From positions 21,743-85,742 of the IMG/VR virus record IMGVR_UViG_3300025151_000023: a stretch of DNA of 64,000 nt. One strand, given 5' to 3'. Each line of letters begins with the position of its first letter. Within the stretch, counting starts at the first letter, position 1. Below the pieces are notes generated by a model. That model was not told the origin of the DNA and did not search any database. It saw only the letters and a list, made by a program, of their open reading frames with translations. The translations under genes and the position numbers were made by a program. This DNA is from a virus. Below, one piece after another: positions 7,999 to 62,876 of the stretch.

Positions 7999-8873
7999 TA
8001 TTGTCCTTGATAATATTTGATAATGTTTTCTATGTCTAATGGTCTGTCAGTTTTAATGTATTGCTCTTGTTTACTGTAGTCAACATAATAATCGCGTTTG
8101 TCTTTGTCTTCGTCTTCAACAATTTTAACATCAATATCAATATATTTTTGTATCTCTTCGACAATGCCACGTTTAGTTACATTCAGCTGTGTTGCTCCTA
8201 CATTGAAAATTTCTTTATTAAATTTGTCAAAATTATCTACCACATAGCCTAGTACATTTGCAATGTCATTAACATGATAAAATGTTCTTTCTGCATTTGG
8301 TTGATATAATTCTATTTTGCCATGTTTTACAGCATCATGACACAGTGTGTGTATTAACAAGTCATGTCGCATTTTGAAAGACAAACCGTAAGCAGTTGCA
8401 GGACGTAAAATTGTCCAGTTGTCAATTTGTTTTACTATTTGCTCACCTTCAAGTTTTGTTTTAGCATATAGTGTTGCAGGATTACATTCTAAAGTTTCGA
8501 CACATGGTTCACTTAGTGCACCATACACACTACCAGTTGATAAGAAAATAGTTGGCTTGTTCATTGCACAAATTGCCTTTACGCCTTCTATGTTAGTTCG
8601 ATGTGTTTCTTCAGGGTGTTTATCACAGTCAATATAACCAACCTTTGCCGCCAAATGTAATATCATGTCAACATCATTAAAAATGCTTAGATCATCGCAT
8701 ACATCATATTTTTTGAACACAACATTTTTATTGTATTCTAGTGCAATGCCTAATCGTTGCTCCAATGCTGTTTGTGACGAATCTATGCACATCAACGTGT
8801 GATTTGTGTTACGCATATTATAGATAAACTGTGTGCCAATATATCCAAGTGCGCCTGTAACTAATATTTTCAT
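7998..8873 (-). CDS. NAD-dependent NDP-sugar epimerase/dehydratase/reductase (extended SDR)
   Basis: ILVTGALGYIG, HLAA, STGSVYG and YAKTK motifs. Start moved to the ATG at 8873 (MKILVTG). Confidence 0.88.
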   Translation of the reverse strand: MKILVTGALGYIGTQFIYNMRNTNHTLMCIDSSQTALEQRLGIALEYNKNVVFKKYDVCDDLSIFNDVDMILHLAAKVGYIDCDKHPEETHRTNIEGVKAICAMNKPTIFLSTGSVYGALSEPCVETLECNPATLYAKTKLEGEQIVKQIDNWTILRPATAYGLSFKMRHDLLIHTLCHDAVKHGKIELYQPNAERTFYHVNDIANVLGYVVDNFDKFNKEIFNVGATQLNVTKRGIVEEIQKYIDIDVKIVEDEDKDKRDYYVDYSKQEQYIKTDRPLDIENIIKYYQGQ

Positions 8874-12683: not shown

Positions 12684-13507
12684 AAATATTAGTTACCGGT
12701 TGTTCACATATTTTTGGTACTGATCTTAAAGATTGTGACGGTATTACGTCAAGTAAATTGACTTGGCCAATGTTACTGTTTCCGAACGCAACAAATATTT
12801 CAAAACCTGGTGCAAGTCCAAACACAATAGCAAGGCGTGTATTAATGTACCTATCTTATAATTCACCAAAACCTATTGACGGAGTTATAGTCCAATGGCC
12901 GAACCTTAACAGATGGGAATCAGTATCGCCTGATTTTGATATGACTGGAGAAGATTGGCCATATCAAACTATTGGGCAACATGAAAGCCATCAATATAAT
13001 GATAAAGCTACGTTGGCTTGGAAAATGCACATAGCAGGCACTGACTTGTATAATGTGCATATTCAAAATGTACAAACAATTATCATGCTTAATTCTATAC
13101 TACGTTTAAAAAAAATAAAATGTGTAAATTTACTTTCAAATCCTATTTCTACTGATAAAAGGTTACAACCAAATCAACAAAACACTATATCTAAGCCAAA
13201 ACGTTTTTCTATTGGGGACTTGAAACGTTGGGGCTTTTGGAATGCTATACATTCAGGTTTGTGTCATAGCTTTGGAATCAATACTAGTACAGATGCTGAT
13301 ATCAAAGTTGCTGATGATGATGTGTTTGAACGTGTGTTGATGAATGAATTGTCTTTGTACAAATGGTTAGATTTAGATGGAATGTCATGGACGGAATGGG
13401 CATCACACAACAATTATCAAACAACCAATTGGCACTACAGCGAACAGGCTCATGTAGATGCATCTAAATTATTAGAAAACAAAATAGGAAATATTTTTGA
13501 AACTTAA
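12680..13507 (+). CDS. SGNH-like hypothetical protein
   Basis: VTGCSH, NISKPGAS and C-terminal HYSEQAH motifs. Confidence 0.5.
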   Translation: MKILVTGCSHIFGTDLKDCDGITSSKLTWPMLLFPNATNISKPGASPNTIARRVLMYLSYNSPKPIDGVIVQWPNLNRWESVSPDFDMTGEDWPYQTIGQHESHQYNDKATLAWKMHIAGTDLYNVHIQNVQTIIMLNSILRLKKIKCVNLLSNPISTDKRLQPNQQNTISKPKRFSIGDLKRWGFWNAIHSGLCHSFGINTSTDADIKVADDDVFERVLMNELSLYKWLDLDGMSWTEWASHNNYQTTNWHYSEQAHVDASKLLENKIGNIFET

Positions 13508-19437: not shown

Positions 19438-19527
19438 TGGTACGGTCTACAGGACTTGAACCTGTATGCTTTGTGGCTATACCCGCTCTAGACGGCTATA
19501 CGTGTCTACCAATTCCACCAAGACCGC
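19438..19527 (-). tRNA. tRNA-Leu-like (TAG) with abnormally long anticodon arm
   Basis: GCGGTCT/AGACCGT acceptor, A73, encoded CCA, D-loop GG, T arm ACAGG-TTCAAGT-CCTGT, class II variable arm. Anticodon arm is TATAGCCG-TCTAGAG-CGGGTATA. Confidence 0.7.
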
Positions 19528-21092: not shown

Positions 21093-21103
21093 GGTTTAAA
21101 AAA

Positions 21104-21268
21104 TTATAGATAATATCTATTTTTAAATTTACTAGAATAATCTAATTCACGTAGTCTTCGATCTAGATCATATAAGTCTTCTGATTGAGCAAGATAATTG
21201 TTAACTTTTTTTGCTCTTAAGTCTTCGGTTGGAAATAAGCCTAGTACCCAAGTAAGTATTTTTTTCAT
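21104..21268 (-). CDS. DUF3563-like small protein
   Basis: Manual translation, 54 aa: ...NYLAQSEDLYDLDRRLRELD... Confidence 0.55.
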   Translation of the reverse strand: MKKILTWVLGLFPTEDLRAKKVNNYLAQSEDLYDLDRRLRELDYSSKFKNRYYL

Positions 21269-21351
21269 AGTTTAGCCTTTAGTGTCATGTAAGCATATTC
21301 ACATGCTGTTTTAATTTTTTTGTGGTGTACAATGATATAGTAGGATAGCAT
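21265..21351 (-). CDS. 28-aa small protein
   Basis: MLSYYIIVHHKKIKTACEYAYMTLKAKL; start overlaps the upstream TAA and stop overlaps the downstream ATG. Confidence 0.45.
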   Translation of the reverse strand: MLSYYIIVHHKKIKTACEYAYMTLKAKL

Positions 21352-21542
21352 TACCAATTGTTTCCTTTTGGTACGTTACCGGTTGTCTTGTAATAATAGT
21401 AAGCATTACGCCAGTTGTTTTTAAATTCAGTTTTAAAATAGTTTACCATCACGTGATCTTCTGTTACTACATTGAATGAGTTATCAGTGTTCATAAAATT
21501 TGAATTTGTGATAGATTTGATTGCATTAATAATCGTTTGCAT
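21351..21542 (-). CDS. Hypothetical small protein
   Basis: 63-aa ORF with AAGG SD. Confidence 0.6.
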   Translation of the reverse strand: MQTIINAIKSITNSNFMNTDNSFNVVTEDHVMVNYFKTEFKNNWRNAYYYYKTTGNVPKGNNW

Positions 21543-21687
21543 TAGTCGTTTAACCTTTCATAATTTGTTGTTCACTATAATTTATAGCAGAAATCAAAAA
21601 AAACCTACTGTATATTTGCTATAGACGGTATGCAAAAAAGTTATACTGTAAAGTTCTTTGATATGTTGTATTGTTATACTAAAAAAA

Positions 21688-22143
21688 TTATAGATTAGCG
21701 TCTTCCATTCCTGCTACTCTAAGTTTTACTATATTTGTAAGATGCCATTGTTTTTGATCTAGTGCTTTGATTACACCTAACCATTTGTTCCTTAGTAGAG
21801 CCCACTCGTTAACGATTGCTTCATAATTACAAACTTCATCTTCACCTTCTGCATACTTTTCTGCGTCACGTGATGTAAGAGCTCTTTGATAATTTTCTAA
21901 ATATTTTTTGTAGTGTTTAGTGCGTAATCGTCTGTGTTGTATTTCTAAATGTTTTAATATGCCTTCAACTTCTTGTAGTTGTCTAAAACGTTCTTCCACA
22001 ACACCTGGCATTGATGCTGATTGTTTTTCAATGTTGCCTTGTAATTTAACTTCTTTTGATGCGTGTTCTAGTTCAGATTCATAGTGTGTAATTGCATCAG
22101 GAATCTTAGAAACGTCTTGTGAAACTATTGAGAACCAATTCAT
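21688..22143 (-). CDS. uvsY: UvsY-like recombination mediator
   Basis: Helical 151-aa protein (...SRDAEKYAEGE...LRVAGMED) downstream of uvsX. Confidence 0.7.
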   Translation of the reverse strand: MNWFSIVSQDVSKIPDAITHYESELEHASKEVKLQGNIEKQSASMPGVVEERFRQLQEVEGILKHLEIQHRRLRTKHYKKYLENYQRALTSRDAEKYAEGEDEVCNYEAIVNEWALLRNKWLGVIKALDQKQWHLTNIVKLRVAGMEDANL

Positions 22144-22397
22144 TAGTAATCTTCATAACGTTCTTCACCATAACCATCACCATAATCCTCATATTCATCT
22201 TTGTCGTACTCTTTTAGTTCTTGAATAGCTTCATCTAGTTCCTCGTCATGGCCTAGTAATTCATCTAGATCTTCTTCTATAAGCCCAGTGTTAGCAATTA
22301 TATCAACAAACTTGTTTGCAACTATAGATTTATCTTTGGCAGGGACGTATGACTTAATTAAGTTCCAAACATCAATTAACATTTGCGTCTCCGTCAT
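22143..22397 (-). CDS. Hypothetical acidic protein between uvsX and uvsY
   Basis: 84-aa ORF overlapping both neighbours. Confidence 0.7.
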   Translation of the reverse strand: MTETQMLIDVWNLIKSYVPAKDKSIVANKFVDIIANTGLIEEDLDELLGHDEELDEAIQELKEYDKDEYEDYGDGYGEERYEDY

Positions 22398-23457
22398 TTT
22401 CTTTTGTCTCTTCTAGTCCTTCTGGTTGTGTAACAACTTGGTTACTTACCTCTTGCATTACAATTTTTAAATTTTCTGCTCCCCAGGCTTTTCTGTAATC
22501 AAGCAGTTCTTTACCATCTGCTGTTATATATTTCAAACGATTGCCTTGTTGTGTAATAAGGCCTTTTTTCTCAAATAAATCTAATAAGCCACTGTATGGA
22601 TTCATGCCAGTTTCATAAGGAATTTTTACTTGCACACCTTCAAAAGGCTTTGCAAATCTTGTCTTCATAACCTTACACGCGGCTCTTATACCACGTACTT
22701 CACTTACTTTGTTGCCTGCTTCGTCCTCTTTAAGTTTAAGTTTTTTCATTGCAACAACGATACTGGATGCATATATAAATCCTTGTCCACCTGATATCTT
22801 ATCATCAGGATCAAACATGTCCTGTGATGCATAAGTGTGATTAGTTGCAACCATGCCTACGTTAAATGAACCAAACATGTTTACACAGTTTCTAACAAGA
22901 GCTGTTAGTGCCTTAGGTTTTCTGCCTAAGTCGCCCTTCATATCACCCTTTTCGAATTGATCTACATCAGTAGGAGTCATCATCATGCCTAGCGAATCTA
23001 ATACAAACAATACTTTTGGTCGATCTTGTGGATCTTTGTCGGTATAGTCTGCTTTATATTCTTTCATAAAGTTTGATATTGTTTTAGCAACATCATCGAT
23101 CATGCTCATACCTAGTCGTAAAAGTTTTTCTTCTGATGTATCAACACCAATGGCTTTTAACCATGCTTCATCTAATGCATTTTCAGAGTCAACTAGGATT
23201 ACAAATATGCCTTGTTTTTGTGCTTCTCTTATAATGTTGCCCGAACAAATATAAGACTTGCCAGAACCAGACTCGCCTGCAAAGACTGTTACTTTGCCTA
23301 GCGGAATACCTTTATAAAAATCTCCCGAAATAAGATAGTTTAAGGCGTAGTTGCCAGTTGATATCCAGTCAGTTGGATCATTGAATCCTACTCCTAGCCC
23401 ATCAATAGACTTTGTAATACTTTTTCTAAATTTTGTTACATCAAAAGGTTTAACCAT
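22372..23457 (-). CDS. uvsX: UvsX/RecA-like recombinase
   Basis: ISTGNYALN, AGESGSGKS (P-loop), DSENALD, VLDSLG, TNHTY and SGGQG motifs. Confidence 0.93.
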   Translation of the reverse strand: MVKPFDVTKFRKSITKSIDGLGVGFNDPTDWISTGNYALNYLISGDFYKGIPLGKVTVFAGESGSGKSYICSGNIIREAQKQGIFVILVDSENALDEAWLKAIGVDTSEEKLLRLGMSMIDDVAKTISNFMKEYKADYTDKDPQDRPKVLFVLDSLGMMMTPTDVDQFEKGDMKGDLGRKPKALTALVRNCVNMFGSFNVGMVATNHTYASQDMFDPDDKISGGQGFIYASSIVVAMKKLKLKEDEAGNKVSEVRGIRAACKVMKTRFAKPFEGVQVKIPYETGMNPYSGLLDLFEKKGLITQQGNRLKYITADGKELLDYRKAWGAENLKIVMQEVSNQVVTQPEGLEETKENDGDANVN

Positions 23458-59177: not shown

Positions 59178-60044
59178 ATGACAAACCCACTACAAAATTA
59201 TTTTCGTAAGCCGGAAATTTATATCAAACTACCTTCACAAGGCAGATGGTATCCACCTGGCACAGTTACACTCAACGAAGCAGGTGAAGTTGGCGTAATG
59301 CCGATGACTGCACGTGATGAAATGATTGTGCGTACTCCTGATGCCCTGTTAAACGGACAAGCAACTGTTGAACTTATCAAATCCTGTGTGCCGGACATCA
59401 CAGAACCTTGGTCTATGCCCCAAATGGATATAGACACAGTTTTAGTAGGCATTAGAATTGCTACCTATGGCAATGCCATGGCGCTTACTACAATGCCTCC
59501 AGGGTCTAATGTTTCGCAAGAAATGAATTTGGATTTGAACCAATTGGTTGCAATGATTAAAATTGGTGACTACAATGATACATGTGTGTTATCAAATGGT
59601 TTGCAAATTAAAACCAAACCAGGCGATTATAGGGCATTTACTCAATCTGCATTGAAGACATATGAAGAACAACGCATGTTGAGAACTATCAACAGCAGTG
59701 ACATTTCCGAATCGGACAAAGTAAACAAATTTACTAAAATTTTTACTGATTTAAGCAACATGACTGTGGATGTTATGGCCAGAGGCATTATGCAAATTGT
59801 AACACCGGAAGGTGAAACAGTTACTGATGTTAAACACATTCATGATTTTGTGTACAACATGGATACAAAAATAGCAGATGAATTGAAAGCTCACATCAGT
59901 GCTAACGCAGAAATTGGCAAGATTCCGCCAATACAAGTTCAATCCACAGAAGAGCAAATCAAGGCAGGAGCACCTAGCACATACGAAACTGCTGTGTCGT
60001 TCGACAACAGCAATTTTTTCGCATACAGATCCTCTCGCTCTTAG
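59178..60044 (+). CDS. gp26: gp26-like baseplate hub / tail assembly protein
   Basis: YIKLPSQG, PMTARDE, TPDALLNG and DIDTVLVGIRIATYG motifs. Confidence 0.75.
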   Translation: MTNPLQNYFRKPEIYIKLPSQGRWYPPGTVTLNEAGEVGVMPMTARDEMIVRTPDALLNGQATVELIKSCVPDITEPWSMPQMDIDTVLVGIRIATYGNAMALTTMPPGSNVSQEMNLDLNQLVAMIKIGDYNDTCVLSNGLQIKTKPGDYRAFTQSALKTYEEQRMLRTINSSDISESDKVNKFTKIFTDLSNMTVDVMARGIMQIVTPEGETVTDVKHIHDFVYNMDTKIADELKAHISANAEIGKIPPIQVQSTEEQIKAGAPSTYETAVSFDNSNFFAYRSSRS

Positions 60045-60073
60045 AATCTGACCTCACTGCAAAATTCACAGAG

Positions 60074-60250
60074 ATGGAGAATGAAAACAAAAAACTAACA
60101 CACGATTTGTTGAAAATGTGTTGGTACATGCGTGGCTCTATCAGCATTGATCAAGCATATGCACTGGGTCCACAAGAACGCAAAATCATAGCCGACATTG
60201 TGAAAGACAACATGGAAACTGTGAAAAAAACTAAAATGCCACTATTATAA
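60074..60250 (+). CDS. gp51-like small ORF, probably translated as a -1 frameshift extension of gp26-like
   Basis: Manual translation MENENKKLTHDLLKMCWYMRGSISIDQAY...ER...; the -1 frame is open from 59978. Confidence 0.65.
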   Translation: MENENKKLTHDLLKMCWYMRGSISIDQAYALGPQERKIIADIVKDNMETVKKTKMPLL

Positions 60251-60258
60251 ATATTGTT

Positions 60259-60780
60259 ATGCGTTATAAAGAAGTGTTTGAACAAGATCCAGTAGGCACA
60301 GCAATAGCTCGTGCGGCAGGTCAATTGGCAAGCACAGTTGCTGACATTGATTTTACCAGTGACAGAACCACAGCAAAACAAGAACTGGCACAAGACTGGA
60401 ATCAACACTTTTCTGCACTGCTGAGAAAAGATCCTAGTGCAAGGGAACGATATGGTGTTGAATTTCAAAAATGGGCAAAGGAGTATGATCCTGCTGTGGC
60501 AACCAGAATATCGCCAACTCAAGTTGTAGCAGGTGGCAAGCCTGATCAAAAATATATGAACAAGGCATTGGATTTGATCTACAAATCTGCTAAACAGTAC
60601 CAAAAAAAGAAACAGAAATATGGAGCTGGCAACGTGGCCACTAAAAAAGATGATCCAGCAATGCCACGTGGCACCAAAGGAACAGGATCTGATGGTAAAG
60701 AATACACATGGCAAGGTCAACAATGGACTGACGCAAAAGGATCCATCAAACGCAAAAACATCGCAGTTTCTGTAACCTAG
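60259..60780 (+). CDS. Hypothetical late protein
   Basis: 173-aa ORF with TAAATA 5 nt upstream; C-terminal YTWQGQQW motif. Confidence 0.7.
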   Translation: MRYKEVFEQDPVGTAIARAAGQLASTVADIDFTSDRTTAKQELAQDWNQHFSALLRKDPSARERYGVEFQKWAKEYDPAVATRISPTQVVAGGKPDQKYMNKALDLIYKSAKQYQKKKQKYGAGNVATKKDDPAMPRGTKGTGSDGKEYTWQGQQWTDAKGSIKRKNIAVSVT

Positions 60781-60782
60781 AT

Positions 60783-61165
60783 CAGATTGGCTGACGCCAA
60801 TCGCTTTTCGCTTACGCTCAAGCCTTTTGTTTAACAAGCAGTTTTGCATCATGTAGATAGAGCAGTCATAATTCTGCTGTTACCAGCAGAACCATGGATA
60901 CATCATGTGAGTATCGCAGTCTTTAATCTCGCTACCGTAGTCGGGCGGTTGTGCTGTACCCGTTTGCTCATTCTAAACAACGCGACCTGCACACACCTAG
61001 ATTAAATTATTTGTGTGCAAGTTGAGGTTGCATCTTTTTCTTTGCAGTGCCTCATCATTGGAAATTGTTGCATCAAGGGATTCGCCTGTGTTGTTACACC
61101 GTAGTTCCCTGTTGAGTGAAGATGCTATATAGCCTGAAATGTTATGAAGTGCCTGAATGCCTAGC
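60783..61165 (-). ncRNA. Candidate large structured non-coding RNA (unassigned family)
   Basis: Only long intergenic gap in the window (~410 bp). Contains several hairpins whose GNRA loops and G-U pairs work only on the minus strand, plus an internal GACTGC-N7-ACATGATG direct repeat. Ends are approximate. Confidence 0.65.
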
Positions 61166-61191
61166 GTCAATATATACACATATAATCTGTT

Positions 61192-62127
61192 ATGGTCAAT
61201 CAAAATGAATTCAACGTGTGGAATCACTGGGATCCACTGAAAACTGTCATGCTGGCAACTCTGCCTAGTGCAGACTATTTTGCAAACATCAGGCTGTTCA
61301 GAAATCAACAACCATTGGTTGATATGTTGCAACAAACAGCAGATGATCTTGATAATCTACACAACACATTGGAAGAACATGGTGTGCATGTAAAAAGACA
61401 ACAACCTAACACAGACAAACGATTTGACCCTAGTTCTATTCCATACATTGACAAGCATTTGCAACCAAGGCCCAATCACAATTTTATGGTGTTGGGTAAT
61501 AATATGTGTAGCAACCATGATGGATATAGACTGATGGCACAATGGGACGAACACTTTCCTGACGCAGACAAATTGAGTACACAACCTTTGGCATGGTTTG
61601 AGCTGACAAAAATATTAGCAAGTATTCAACACAAAGTTAAATTTACCCAATGGATGATGTTGGGTAAACACTTGATTGCAAATTATACCACTAACGATAA
61701 ACAATACAAACACTGGATATTTGATCTAAGGCAATGGGTAAGCAAATGGATACCGAATGTGCGACTGCAACTGTTCAACATTGATAACATGTGGTTAACT
61801 ATTTGTAGACCTGGATACATTATTACTAATGTTAGTGATGACAAATTAAAAAAAGCATTTCCAGGATGGAAAATTTGGACTATGAAAGAACATGTGGACA
61901 TATTAATGATAGACAACAATACAGCATGTGTGACATCCAAATATGATAAAGAACTGTTTAAGTATCTGCATCAATTGGACATATTGCCCATACACACTCC
62001 TTTGCGACACACTGAAAGGTGGCACACAAACTTGCATTGGATGTACACAGAATTAGAACGTGTAGGCACCACTGTTGTTGATTACATTTATGGTCGCAAT
62101 GGTATTCCAAGGTTCACACTAGTATGA
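61192..62127 (+). CDS. Amidinotransferase-family (pentein) protein, degenerate active site
   Basis: WNHWDPLKTVM, GVHVKR, QPR..FMVLG motifs; C-terminal NLHW in place of GGxHC. Confidence 0.55.
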   Translation: MVNQNEFNVWNHWDPLKTVMLATLPSADYFANIRLFRNQQPLVDMLQQTADDLDNLHNTLEEHGVHVKRQQPNTDKRFDPSSIPYIDKHLQPRPNHNFMVLGNNMCSNHDGYRLMAQWDEHFPDADKLSTQPLAWFELTKILASIQHKVKFTQWMMLGKHLIANYTTNDKQYKHWIFDLRQWVSKWIPNVRLQLFNIDNMWLTICRPGYIITNVSDDKLKKAFPGWKIWTMKEHVDILMIDNNTACVTSKYDKELFKYLHQLDILPIHTPLRHTERWHTNLHWMYTELERVGTTVVDYIYGRNGIPRFTLV

Positions 62128-62876
62128 AGATATATTTTGATCACCTGTTTGGCAACACCACTGAATATGATGTGTTCAATAGCTTTGCTGTGGCAGAGGT
62201 TGATGTGGGCGAAGAAGATCAAGCACTTGCACAAGGATGGACGCCCATGGACGCCTATTTTTACACATTGAACAAGTTGCTATGGATCAATGTGCGAACC
62301 ACTAGATTGTGTTTACAAGATTGGACTTGGCGTAAAAAACACAGAAGGTTAAAACGCAATGGTGTAACACATAAGTTTATTCCAATCGGTGATCCCAATC
62401 CATACGACAGCGACTGTGATCGAGTGTACCATGCTTATTGCAAAGCTAAAGGATTCACAGACCACACCGGACACGTGATTGAAACTGATTTTAGTAACAA
62501 AGATTATTTTGTATACTTTGACGACAATCGTGTGATAGGGTATTCAGCAATCACTAGGTTTAAAGAAAGTGTCATTGCTGGAGAATTTGCATGGGACTAT
62601 GCCAATCCAAATCTACAAATAGGCAACTACAGTGTAAACATTGAAGCTGAACACTATCAAGGCATGGGCATCAAACATTACTACAATTCATATGCGTATC
62701 AATCAATTTGTCAGTACAAATGCAATTTCAACAACTTTGAATGGTGGACTGGCAGAGAATGGAGCACTGACAAAGATCTTTACAAAACACTACTAGCAAA
62801 AGATGATGAAGTTAAAACTTTTGCAGATCTACACAAGCACACAAAAGACTATTTCAAACTGTTGGGATATAATTAA
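62124..62876 (+). CDS. ATE/Bpt-like aminoacyl-tRNA--protein transferase
   Basis: ALAQGW, RTTRL, YHAYC..KGF, FAWDY..P.LQIG.YS...E, YYNSYAY...CQYK and FEWWTG motifs. Confidence 0.6.
   Translation: MKIYFDHLFGNTTEYDVFNSFAVAEVDVGEEDQALAQGWTPMDAYFYTLNKLLWINVRTTRLCLQDWTWRKKHRRLKRNGVTHKFIPIGDPNPYDSDCDRVYHAYCKAKGFTDHTGHVIETDFSNKDYFVYFDDNRVIGYSAITRFKESVIAGEFAWDYANPNLQIGNYSVNIEAEHYQGMGIKHYYNSYAYQSICQYKCNFNNFEWWTGREWSTDKDLYKTLLAKDDEVKTFADLHKHTKDYFKLLGYN

Follow-up and report, generated by a model that had tools for sequence, protein, structure and literature searches.

A large pseudoknotted RNA kept across uncultured marine jumbo phages, very probably a new structured RNA family

Our analysis supports the conclusion that a 411-nt gap in a phage genome fragment encodes, on the minus strand, a free-standing structured non-coding RNA (ncRNA) of ~385 nt. 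The fragment, hereafter the window, is the 64,000-nt stretch at bases 21743-85742 of the 85.7-kb IMG/VR virus record IMGVR_UViG_3300025151_000023, which is 23% complete according to CheckV, and the gap (60781-61191) lies between the plus-strand genes 60259-60780 (173 aa) and 61192-62127 (311 aa). The RNA matches no described family that we found; it is very probably a real, independent gene of a new structured phage RNA family. A first-pass annotation, made from the letters alone, had proposed an undescribed structured RNA of ~380 nt on the minus strand of this gap, and the proposal is borne out by the folding energy of that strand (z -4.97, against -0.66 for the plus strand), by 81 distinct homologues with strong covariation, and by the lack of a match in Rfam 15, the deposited phages or the literature searched.

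The minus strand of 60783-61165 folds with -121.7 kcal/mol, against -93.3 +/- 5.7 kcal/mol in shuffled sequences, none of 100 of which was as good, whereas on the plus strand 25 of 100 shuffles were as good as the native sequence. Conserved G-U pairs are numerous (for example in 58, 58, 61, 79 and 61 of 80 alignment rows) and would be A-C mismatches on the opposite strand; they therefore fix the RNA strand as minus, in agreement with the earlier use of G-U wobbles as a strand mark.

Homologues came to light by several routes. The 311-aa neighbour (P0002) found no relative in scans of the viral contigs, whether used as a single protein or as an alignment; in a metagenome scan it led to four loci, each keeping a gap of 410-418 nt at the same place. 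The gap DNA of the window is 84-85% identical to that of L004 and L005, where the neighbouring protein is just 42-44% identical, and mean column identity over four sequences is 92%, the few differences being largely compensatory. A 22-mer of the core of the RNA had no match in the viral contig set, and a 17-mer gave six loci, one of which (L007) is a chance match; the core 17-mer matches at least 119 IMG/VR contigs. An nhmmer profile of the first nine copies found the element in 121 of the 124 loci fetched, mostly at full length, and the 98 copies uncut by contig ends gave 81 distinct sequences with 55-96% identity to the window copy (alignment A5). The invariance of the 17-mer is partly built in, because all homologues beyond the first nine were reached through its exact sequence; it is also invariant in loci reached by other routes, and the true family is probably wider than the copies collected. 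Marine, seawater and estuary metagenomes of 11 studies contain near-identical DNA. In the DNA run X19 the summed contig depth is 175 in the bin 60876-61009 and 21-55 in the remaining bins, a peak that we read solely as relatives sharing the core.

By these comparisons, purifying selection on the RNA is much stronger than on the surrounding protein genes. The RNA holds no conserved reading frame, the longest open reading frames (ORFs) of the copies differing in frame, strand and ends, and coding of a small protein in the gap was rejected on this ground. The minus-strand ORF 60151-60852 (233 aa), which spans the first flanking gene, was likewise discarded; its translation is Cys/Phe/Leu-rich junk.

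On the 81-row alignment, a scan for runs of compatible, varying column pairs yielded eleven proposed helices with 61 pairs. Across the 4876 cells of these pairs, 97.4% are paired, compared with 84.3% when partners are shuffled, and none of 500 shuffles reached the observed value of any of five measures. Both sides have changed in 35 of the 61 pairs, with 644 such cells against 155 expected, and pairing falls to 32-38% when partners are slid by 1-3 columns. The shuffle control takes no account of phylogeny. Both the slid control and the count of pair types at each position speak for a real covariation signal. The first-pass annotation had named the absence of covariation in homologues as grounds for giving up the idea, and on this count the RNA clearly stands. 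The parts of the RNA outside its two repeats and its terminal hairpin are as follows.

60785-61164, minus strand: RNA body of ~380-385 nt, supported by folding energy (z -4.97), nhmmer and covariation
61070-61125, minus strand: 5' domain, in which helix H1 encloses helix H2 and a variable hairpin (61081-61105)
61121-61125 with 61070-61074, minus strand: helix H1, GCAUC/GAUGC, 99.3% paired, 3 of 5 pairs changed on both sides
61106-61110 with 61076-61080, minus strand: helix H2, AGGGA/UCCCU, 97.8% paired, 3 of 5 pairs changed on both sides
61023-61054, minus strand: hairpin H3, UGAGG/CCUCA, with an A-rich conserved loop and a conserved AAUGAUG just before it, 99.0% paired, 3 of 5 pairs changed on both sides
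60985-61022, minus strand: hairpin H4 of 11 bp with a 16-nt loop, the best helix, 9 of 11 pairs changed on both sides and up to six pair types per position
61000-61006, minus strand: 5' strand of pseudoknot PK1, UUUAAUC, in the H4 loop
60922-60928, minus strand: 3' strand of pseudoknot PK1, GAUUAAA, just upstream of repeat 1
60931-60984, minus strand: invariant core, comprising CGCGUUGU, a three-way junction (helix of 2-3 bp), a CGGGU/GCCCG hairpin with an 11-nt invariant loop, and a tetraloop mini-hairpin
60869-60894, minus strand: long hairpin H8 with a GNRA loop, between the two repeats, 98.6% paired, 5 of 11 pairs changed on both sides
60803-60824, minus strand: helix H9, GCUU/AAGC around GAGCGUAAGCG, GAAAC/GUUUC in most relatives, 3 of 5 pairs changed on both sides

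Most stems drawn in the first-pass annotation thus recur as covarying helices: GCAUC/GAUGC and AGGGA/UCCCU as H1 and H2, the GAGG/CCUC stem as H3, in which two inner pairs covary too, the 11-bp stem as H4, and the 13-bp hairpin as H8, with 11 conserved pairs. The small hairpin GUGU-AACA-ACAC of the window is replaced by CCAU/AUGG in relatives, a compensatory change. In the same region (61081-61105), the kept alignment columns 128 and 147 form only G-U (54 copies) or A-C (27 copies), a switch between isosteric wobble pairs that hints that wobble geometry may be needed at that spot. Two of the earlier stems are harder to judge, as CGGGU/GCCCG is kept in all copies and is uninformative, since it never varies and lies inside the search pattern, while GC-GUAA-GC is itself invariant and the 5-bp helix that encloses it covaries. 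CAAUG/CGUUG is the one earlier stem for which comparison with relatives gave no support, CGCGUUGU being invariant and without an assigned partner.

The annotation had missed the 7-bp pseudoknot PK1, which is 99.8% paired with 6 of 7 pairs changed on both sides; this covariation fits pairing within one molecule or between molecules. The invariant core, with CGCGUUGU, the small junction and the hairpin with the 11-nt loop, carries no covariation. The stretch 61125-61164 and the 5' ends of homologues carry two to four AGGC(A) copies with variable A/U-rich spacers, between which some clades insert a hairpin; these copies could be another repeated binding site. A helix closing the 5' and 3' ends, predicted by RNAalifold for the clade that holds the window copy (the window clade), was dropped because it conflicts with the covarying H9, and further candidate helices were left out for little or no covariation: GCGUU with GACUGC of either repeat, GAUGA with UCAUC, CAUCU with AGAUG, and ACAAC of the invariant loop with GUUGU.

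The RNA also appears to have its own start and end signals.

61194-61199, minus strand: -35-like hexamer TTGACC, overlapping the ATG of the plus-strand gene 61192-62127
61171-61176, minus strand: -10-like hexamer TATATA, with a predicted start at ~61162-61165
60785-60802, minus strand: terminal hairpin GAUUGGC-GUCA-GCCAAUC, the likely 3' end or a weak terminator

The TTGACC-TATATA promoter had been suggested before, and the homologues agree with it. A -10-like hexamer is present in 80 of 80 rows, ending 8-10 nt before the first conserved RGGC, and 60 of the 80 also have a -35-like hexamer at a spacing of 15-17, often with an A-rich stretch before it. Among these 60 rows the -35 hexamer is TTGACC in 45, and the -10 hexamer is TATATA in 33 and TATAAA in 25. 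The terminal hairpin, likewise drawn before, is a perfect hairpin of at least 6 bp in all 81 copies, and its arms change together between clades; at least four T within 8 nt after it occur in only 24 of the 81. We infer that the RNA is a transcription unit of the host polymerase, with a sigma-70-like, early-type promoter. Taken together, the locus combines compensatory pairs beyond controls, promoter and 3' end signals of its own as read from sequence, and no conserved frame, as would be expected of a structured ncRNA gene in general.

The RNA runs examined speak neither for nor against transcription of the gap. In the run X20, which contains 24% of the sampled words, the contigs lie at 61067-61238 and 61313-61549, over the promoter and 5' end of the RNA and over the adjacent gene; this coverage is not selective for the gap and its strand cannot be read. 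Two further RNA runs gave just 35-nt fragments elsewhere.

The claim of novelty rests on several searches. The Rfam scan that the first-pass annotation had proposed as a check, run with Rfam 15 (4227 models) at gathering score over the whole window, returned only two tRNAs, far from the RNA. In the 1-kb region at E<=10, two weak plus-strand matches scored 16 and 11 bits, far under their respective gathering scores (38 and 70), and four diverse homologues had no match at E<=1. Rfam 15 presumably includes GOLLD, ROOL, OLE, HEARO, raiA, IMES, the T-box, riboswitches, RNase P, 6S, group I/II introns and self-cleaving ribozymes. ARAGORN found no tmRNA or tRNA at 60.8-61.2 kb, so that Rfam and ARAGORN concur with the earlier statement that the element does not match tmRNA, RNase P, 6S or group I/II cores. 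Neither the window copy, a main-clade copy nor the 96-nt core (at E<=10) had a blastn match in 50,697 deposited phage records. The core 17-mer was not found in the published literature searched, in which topic searches turned up no prior description. A 2026 preprint on prokaryotic non-coding families has no occurrence of the word 'phage', and phages lie outside its coverage.

The RNA invites comparison with other orphan and classical RNAs. Like GOLLD and ROOL, it is phage-borne, free-standing and several hundred nt long, with many covarying helices, a pseudoknot and an unsolved function; unlike them, it is shorter, has no covariance-model match, does not lie beside tRNA genes in the window, occurs in marine T4-like jumbo phages and carries two boxes that vary in lockstep. 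With 6S RNA, RNase P RNA and tmRNA it would share the character of a stable, structured, trans-acting RNA, and RNase P RNA is of similar size; it differs from all three in lacking an Rfam match and in its helix layout, and from tmRNA also by the negative ARAGORN result.

The cultured jumbo phage PA5oct belongs to a related lineage, its major capsid protein being 65% and its gp46-like protein 48% identical. Four PA5oct ncRNAs (ncRNA001-004), orphans like the RNA of the window and found by RNA-seq, lie at 8263-8498, 21951-22401, 103065-103368 and 246116-246734 according to passages of the PA5oct report (PMC7318152); unlike the RNA described here, none is listed in those passages at the syntenic place near 76.3 kb (PMC7318152). 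At that place (75704-77179; 10055-11530 of L126) there are four annotated ORFs (38-50 aa) and a gap of 660 nt, and the RNA profile has a borderline match (nhmmer E 9e-4). A covariance model of the core (R1, 144 positions) has only weak matches in PA5oct, with E 0.011 at 13117-13288 and E 0.63 at the syntenic 76337-76464, and nothing in the phages Phosso, Vibrio phage 2.275.O and XaC1. We did not count the borderline R1 matches as homologues; the syntenic place of PA5oct may hold a distant or an unrelated ncRNA.

A pair of repeats flanks H8.

60897-60921, minus strand: repeat 1, GACUGC followed by a hairpin GAUAC/GUAUC (read by eye) with box 1, ACAUGAUG, in its loop
60845-60868, minus strand: repeat 2, GACUGC followed after 7 nt by box 2, ACAUGAUG

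GACU is invariant at both repeats. Five positions of the boxes vary, with two to four letters each across the family, and in 81 of 81 copies they have the same letter in both repeats; by column, the letter pairs are for instance CC 64, AA 7, UU 6 and GG 4, or AA 64 and GG 17, or CC 72 and GG 9. Recombination between the repeats is an unlikely source of this lockstep, since their 7-nt spacers are unlike each other and yet conserved across the family. No consistent complementary site for the boxes was found within the RNA, nor in the flanks up to 4 kb on each side, where counts of the complement are near chance. Because the boxes vary in lockstep and are without a complementary partner in the RNA, the simplest reading suggests that they are two sites for one outside ligand.

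The RNA is linked to a gene that we call F4.

62124-62876, plus strand: F4 (250 aa), a protein with an aminoacyl-tRNA-dependent transferase-like fold and a possible partner of the RNA

Among the 54 loci with at least 1.2 kb on both sides of the RNA, F4 lies within two genes of it in 39. In 33 of these it follows the RNA on the same strand, and in six, the window clade among them, it lies upstream and runs divergently. The linkage therefore persists through an inversion, and the start of F4 always faces the RNA. F4 is missing, together with the RNA, from the deposited phage collection (no tblastn match in the 50,697 records) and from four cultured relatives that also lack the RNA. Its homologues in 62 loci have no Pfam match above cut-off, the match to Pfam ATE_C (E 2e-4, 22.4 bits) lying under the cut-off of 25, and a profile search of PDB sequences gave nothing relevant. 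An AlphaFold2 model (pLDDT 81) has as its top Foldseek matches ATE1 (E 3e-9, TM 0.59 by query length), MprF, FemX and Sbb17, all of which use aminoacyl-tRNA. F4 is thus predicted to have a tandem GNAT-like fold that matches solved aminoacyl-tRNA-dependent transferases, an assignment made at the level of structure and not of sequence.

Pseudoknot, family size, box lockstep and the link to this transferase-like neighbour all go beyond the first-pass annotation. From them we tentatively favor a model, to which we give somewhat less than even chances, whereby the RNA acts in trans as a scaffold or partner that has two ligand sites and is perhaps tied to F4. We favor it because the RNA is conserved where no same-strand gene follows, because the boxes vary in lockstep and because the F4 linkage has survived rearrangement. 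In this model, a free-standing gene would give rise to a stable, highly structured phage RNA that acts in trans. The fold would serve as a rigid scaffold for the two identical single-stranded boxes, with the long GNRA hairpin between them; a hairpin loop would present one box and a junction the other. The boxes would dock the same outside ligand, for instance a protein that is dimeric or binds twice, or a short piece of a different RNA. More speculatively, the RNA might be a partner in the F4 pathway, with F4 co-transcribed behind it or placed divergently beside its promoter, and might serve as cofactor, scaffold or regulator of the F4 enzyme or of its tRNA substrate early in infection.

Several observations weigh against this model. 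No transcript was seen, and the sole RNA run with part of the region was not selective for the RNA. The strand asymmetry of folding energy is clear in four of six other members and absent in L008 and L012. No ligand of the boxes emerged, and their lockstep changes amount to few independent events on the tree. The invariance of the core 17-mer is in part an artefact of the search, and the structure between core and repeats was not resolved. Finally, linkage between neighbours is weak evidence for binding, and 15 of the 54 loci have no F4 within two genes; five of these 15 contigs have none anywhere, but they are only 2-7% complete.

The setting of the locus brings up the alternative that the RNA is an origin primer, that is, an early transcript in the late baseplate region whose RNA-DNA hybrid primes the leading strand, as proposed for T4 oriE. 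The fold would then control the hybrid, as in ColE1 RNA II, where the folded RNA decides whether priming occurs. An early-type promoter does sit inside a late structural gene block, exactly at the transcription strand switch, where the genes up to 59136 lie on the minus strand and those from 59178 on the plus strand. The T4 oriE layout, in which an early RNA is followed by the early genes repEB and repEA, also resembles the locus. The cumulative GC skew of the window has its minimum here (-3.26 at 60001-61000), a weak sign and no independent evidence for an origin, because skew follows gene orientation. In passages of a review account of T4 oriE (PMC3016281), the early-type promoter in a late gene region, the strand switch and the skew form a similar setting (PMC3016281). 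However, an origin primer needs neither the pseudoknot nor the lockstep boxes nor the invariant 11-nt loop, and selection acts on RNA pairs, including G-U pairs. By eye, neither iterons nor an AT-rich unwinding stretch were seen beside the RNA, and neither T4 oriE nor ColE1 RNA II is known to keep a pseudoknotted fold across distant relatives. We thus hold a role as primer to be rather unlikely.

The same arrangement of RNA and F4 raises the question of whether the RNA is a very large cis-acting leader or attenuator, similar to a riboswitch or T-box, that controls read-through of the terminal hairpin into F4. In 27 of 41 rows 23 or 25 nt separate the hairpin from the ATG of F4, too few for F4 to have a separate promoter, so that F4, where downstream, must be read from the RNA's promoter; in 33 of the 54 loci F4 is in this same-strand position, and the strong U tail that is often lacking after the hairpin, with only 24 of 81 copies having one, would suit read-through. 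A pairing between CAUCU of repeat 2 and AGAUG, the 5' arm of the hairpin, would be possible in 86-100% of rows for each pair, and regulation by tRNA would suit an enzyme that uses aminoacyl-tRNA. The likeness to T-boxes extends to the position mostly directly upstream of a gene with an aminoacyl-tRNA enzyme fold, with a hairpin between, and to short exposed boxes. On the other hand, a regulated gene directly downstream on the same strand was not found in all members: in the window clade, where only convergent genes follow, and in loci without F4, RNA and hairpin are equally and fully conserved. The anti-terminator pairing is nearly without covariation and, by eye, absent in the window clade. 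The RNA has no match to a T-box or riboswitch model and, by eye, no T-box sequence motif, and it is about twice the size of a T-box; we know of no leader of the riboswitch or T-box kind as large as ~385 nt, which counts against a cis-acting role. We regard such a role as improbable.

Two identical exposed boxes that vary by phage lineage, as expected if hosts differ, are also what one would predict for a decoy or sponge, whose boxes would resemble the site that a host RNA-binding protein, nuclease or small RNA recognises and so titrate a host factor or defence early in infection. The early-type promoter and the lack of a partner for the boxes in the RNA or within 4 kb of flank on each side fit this idea. 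It is set back by the fact that no particular host factor is indicated, and by boxes that, compared by eye, misfit the consensus of CsrA or of the C/D box except in one clade, and we consider it doubtful.

It is tempting to speculate that the RNA binds tRNA and acts in trans as the cofactor of an aminoacyl-tRNA-dependent transferase of the phage, a free-standing 'T-box-like' platform. Each box would offer a codon-like triplet to a tRNA anticodon, and the RNA would pass charged tRNA on to the enzyme, or gate its access, early in infection. The main clade has an invariant ACA as this triplet, and the window clade has either ACA or ACG; both are codons for Thr, and a tRNA-Thr(UGU) is encoded in the window. 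Compared by eye, the anticodon arm of this tRNA pairs with the box only over the three bases of the triplet. We rate this specific form of the model a long shot. ARAGORN places this tRNA among three at 19.4-20.0 kb of the window, 40 kb from the RNA, next to tRNA-Ala(UGC) and a 90-nt tRNA-Leu at 19438-19527 (minus strand), whose anticodon UAG is at position 38.

Self-assembly into homo-oligomers, with PK1 as the contact between molecules, would bring the RNA close to ROOL, GOLLD and OLE. GOLLD and ROOL form cages, and the RNA resembles them as a large phage-borne RNA of unsolved function whose PK1 covariation fits intermolecular pairing equally well. It is smaller than ROOL, GOLLD and OLE, shares no sequence or model similarity with them and has no palindromic kissing loop that we found, and contacts between subunits would not predict boxes that covary by identity; oligomers of this kind therefore seem very unlikely. 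A ribozyme or processed precursor, in which the GACUGC repeats would be cleavage sites that free the central hairpin, has in its favor the invariant GACU at both repeats and an invariant, partly single-stranded core, and against it the absence of a match to any self-cleaving ribozyme model and of any evidence of processing, and we set it aside as extremely unlikely.

The surroundings of the RNA are those of a T4-type phage. Proteins of the window include terminase, portal, major head protein, sheath, UvsX and baseplate hub, spanning structural and replication functions; in the major head protein the window shares 65-70% identity with the jumbo phages PA5oct, Phosso, Vibrio phage 2.275.O and XaC1 (285-470 kb). 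In the main clade the gene order is gp47-like, gp46-like, Hc1-like, a GIY-YIG-domain protein, the RNA and usually F4 and F6, followed by small genes, the baseplate hub and a ~740-aa protein. The Hc1-type, histone H1-like protein (63 aa; PF07432, E 1e-12) is encoded two genes upstream of the RNA (for example L060 7702-7893) and is a conserved neighbour of the gp46/gp47-like genes. F4 and F6 (~175 aa, with a weak DUF6875 match) form a convergent gene pair that moves as a block. In the main-clade spacer between hairpin and F4, a conserved TTAAGTA lies 10-14 nt before the ATG of F4 (L109, L050), with no Shine-Dalgarno sequence; it could be a translation signal or a phage-specific promoter. The Trp-rich protein P0002 (61192-62127, plus strand) has no Pfam or PHROG match and only three homologues in a set of 5.8 billion proteins; its gene lies between RNA and F4 in some clades and is missing in others (L006, L009). 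The gap itself had been described as the only long one in the window, which is roughly right: a second one exists at 21093-21687, the second-longest stretch free of large ORFs, and is filled by minus-strand ORFs of 54 and 63 aa, so that it is probably coding and not another RNA.

Large RNAs with a complex fold are rare, and nearly each class that was later solved, such as rRNA, RNase P, tmRNA, group I/II introns and riboswitches, revealed basic biochemistry. A few orphan classes (GOLLD, ROOL, OLE and raiA) are under active study, and the RNA described here looks like another: ~385 nt long, pseudoknotted, more conserved than the proteins encoded nearby and widespread in uncultured marine jumbo phages. 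It comes with testable handles in the form of the lockstep boxes and the linked enzyme with an aminoacyl-tRNA-dependent transferase fold. If the RNA were an origin primer, this group of phages would have its first defined conserved origin element, and if it were a tRNA-binding cofactor of F4, it would represent a new kind of RNA-guided amino-acid transfer.

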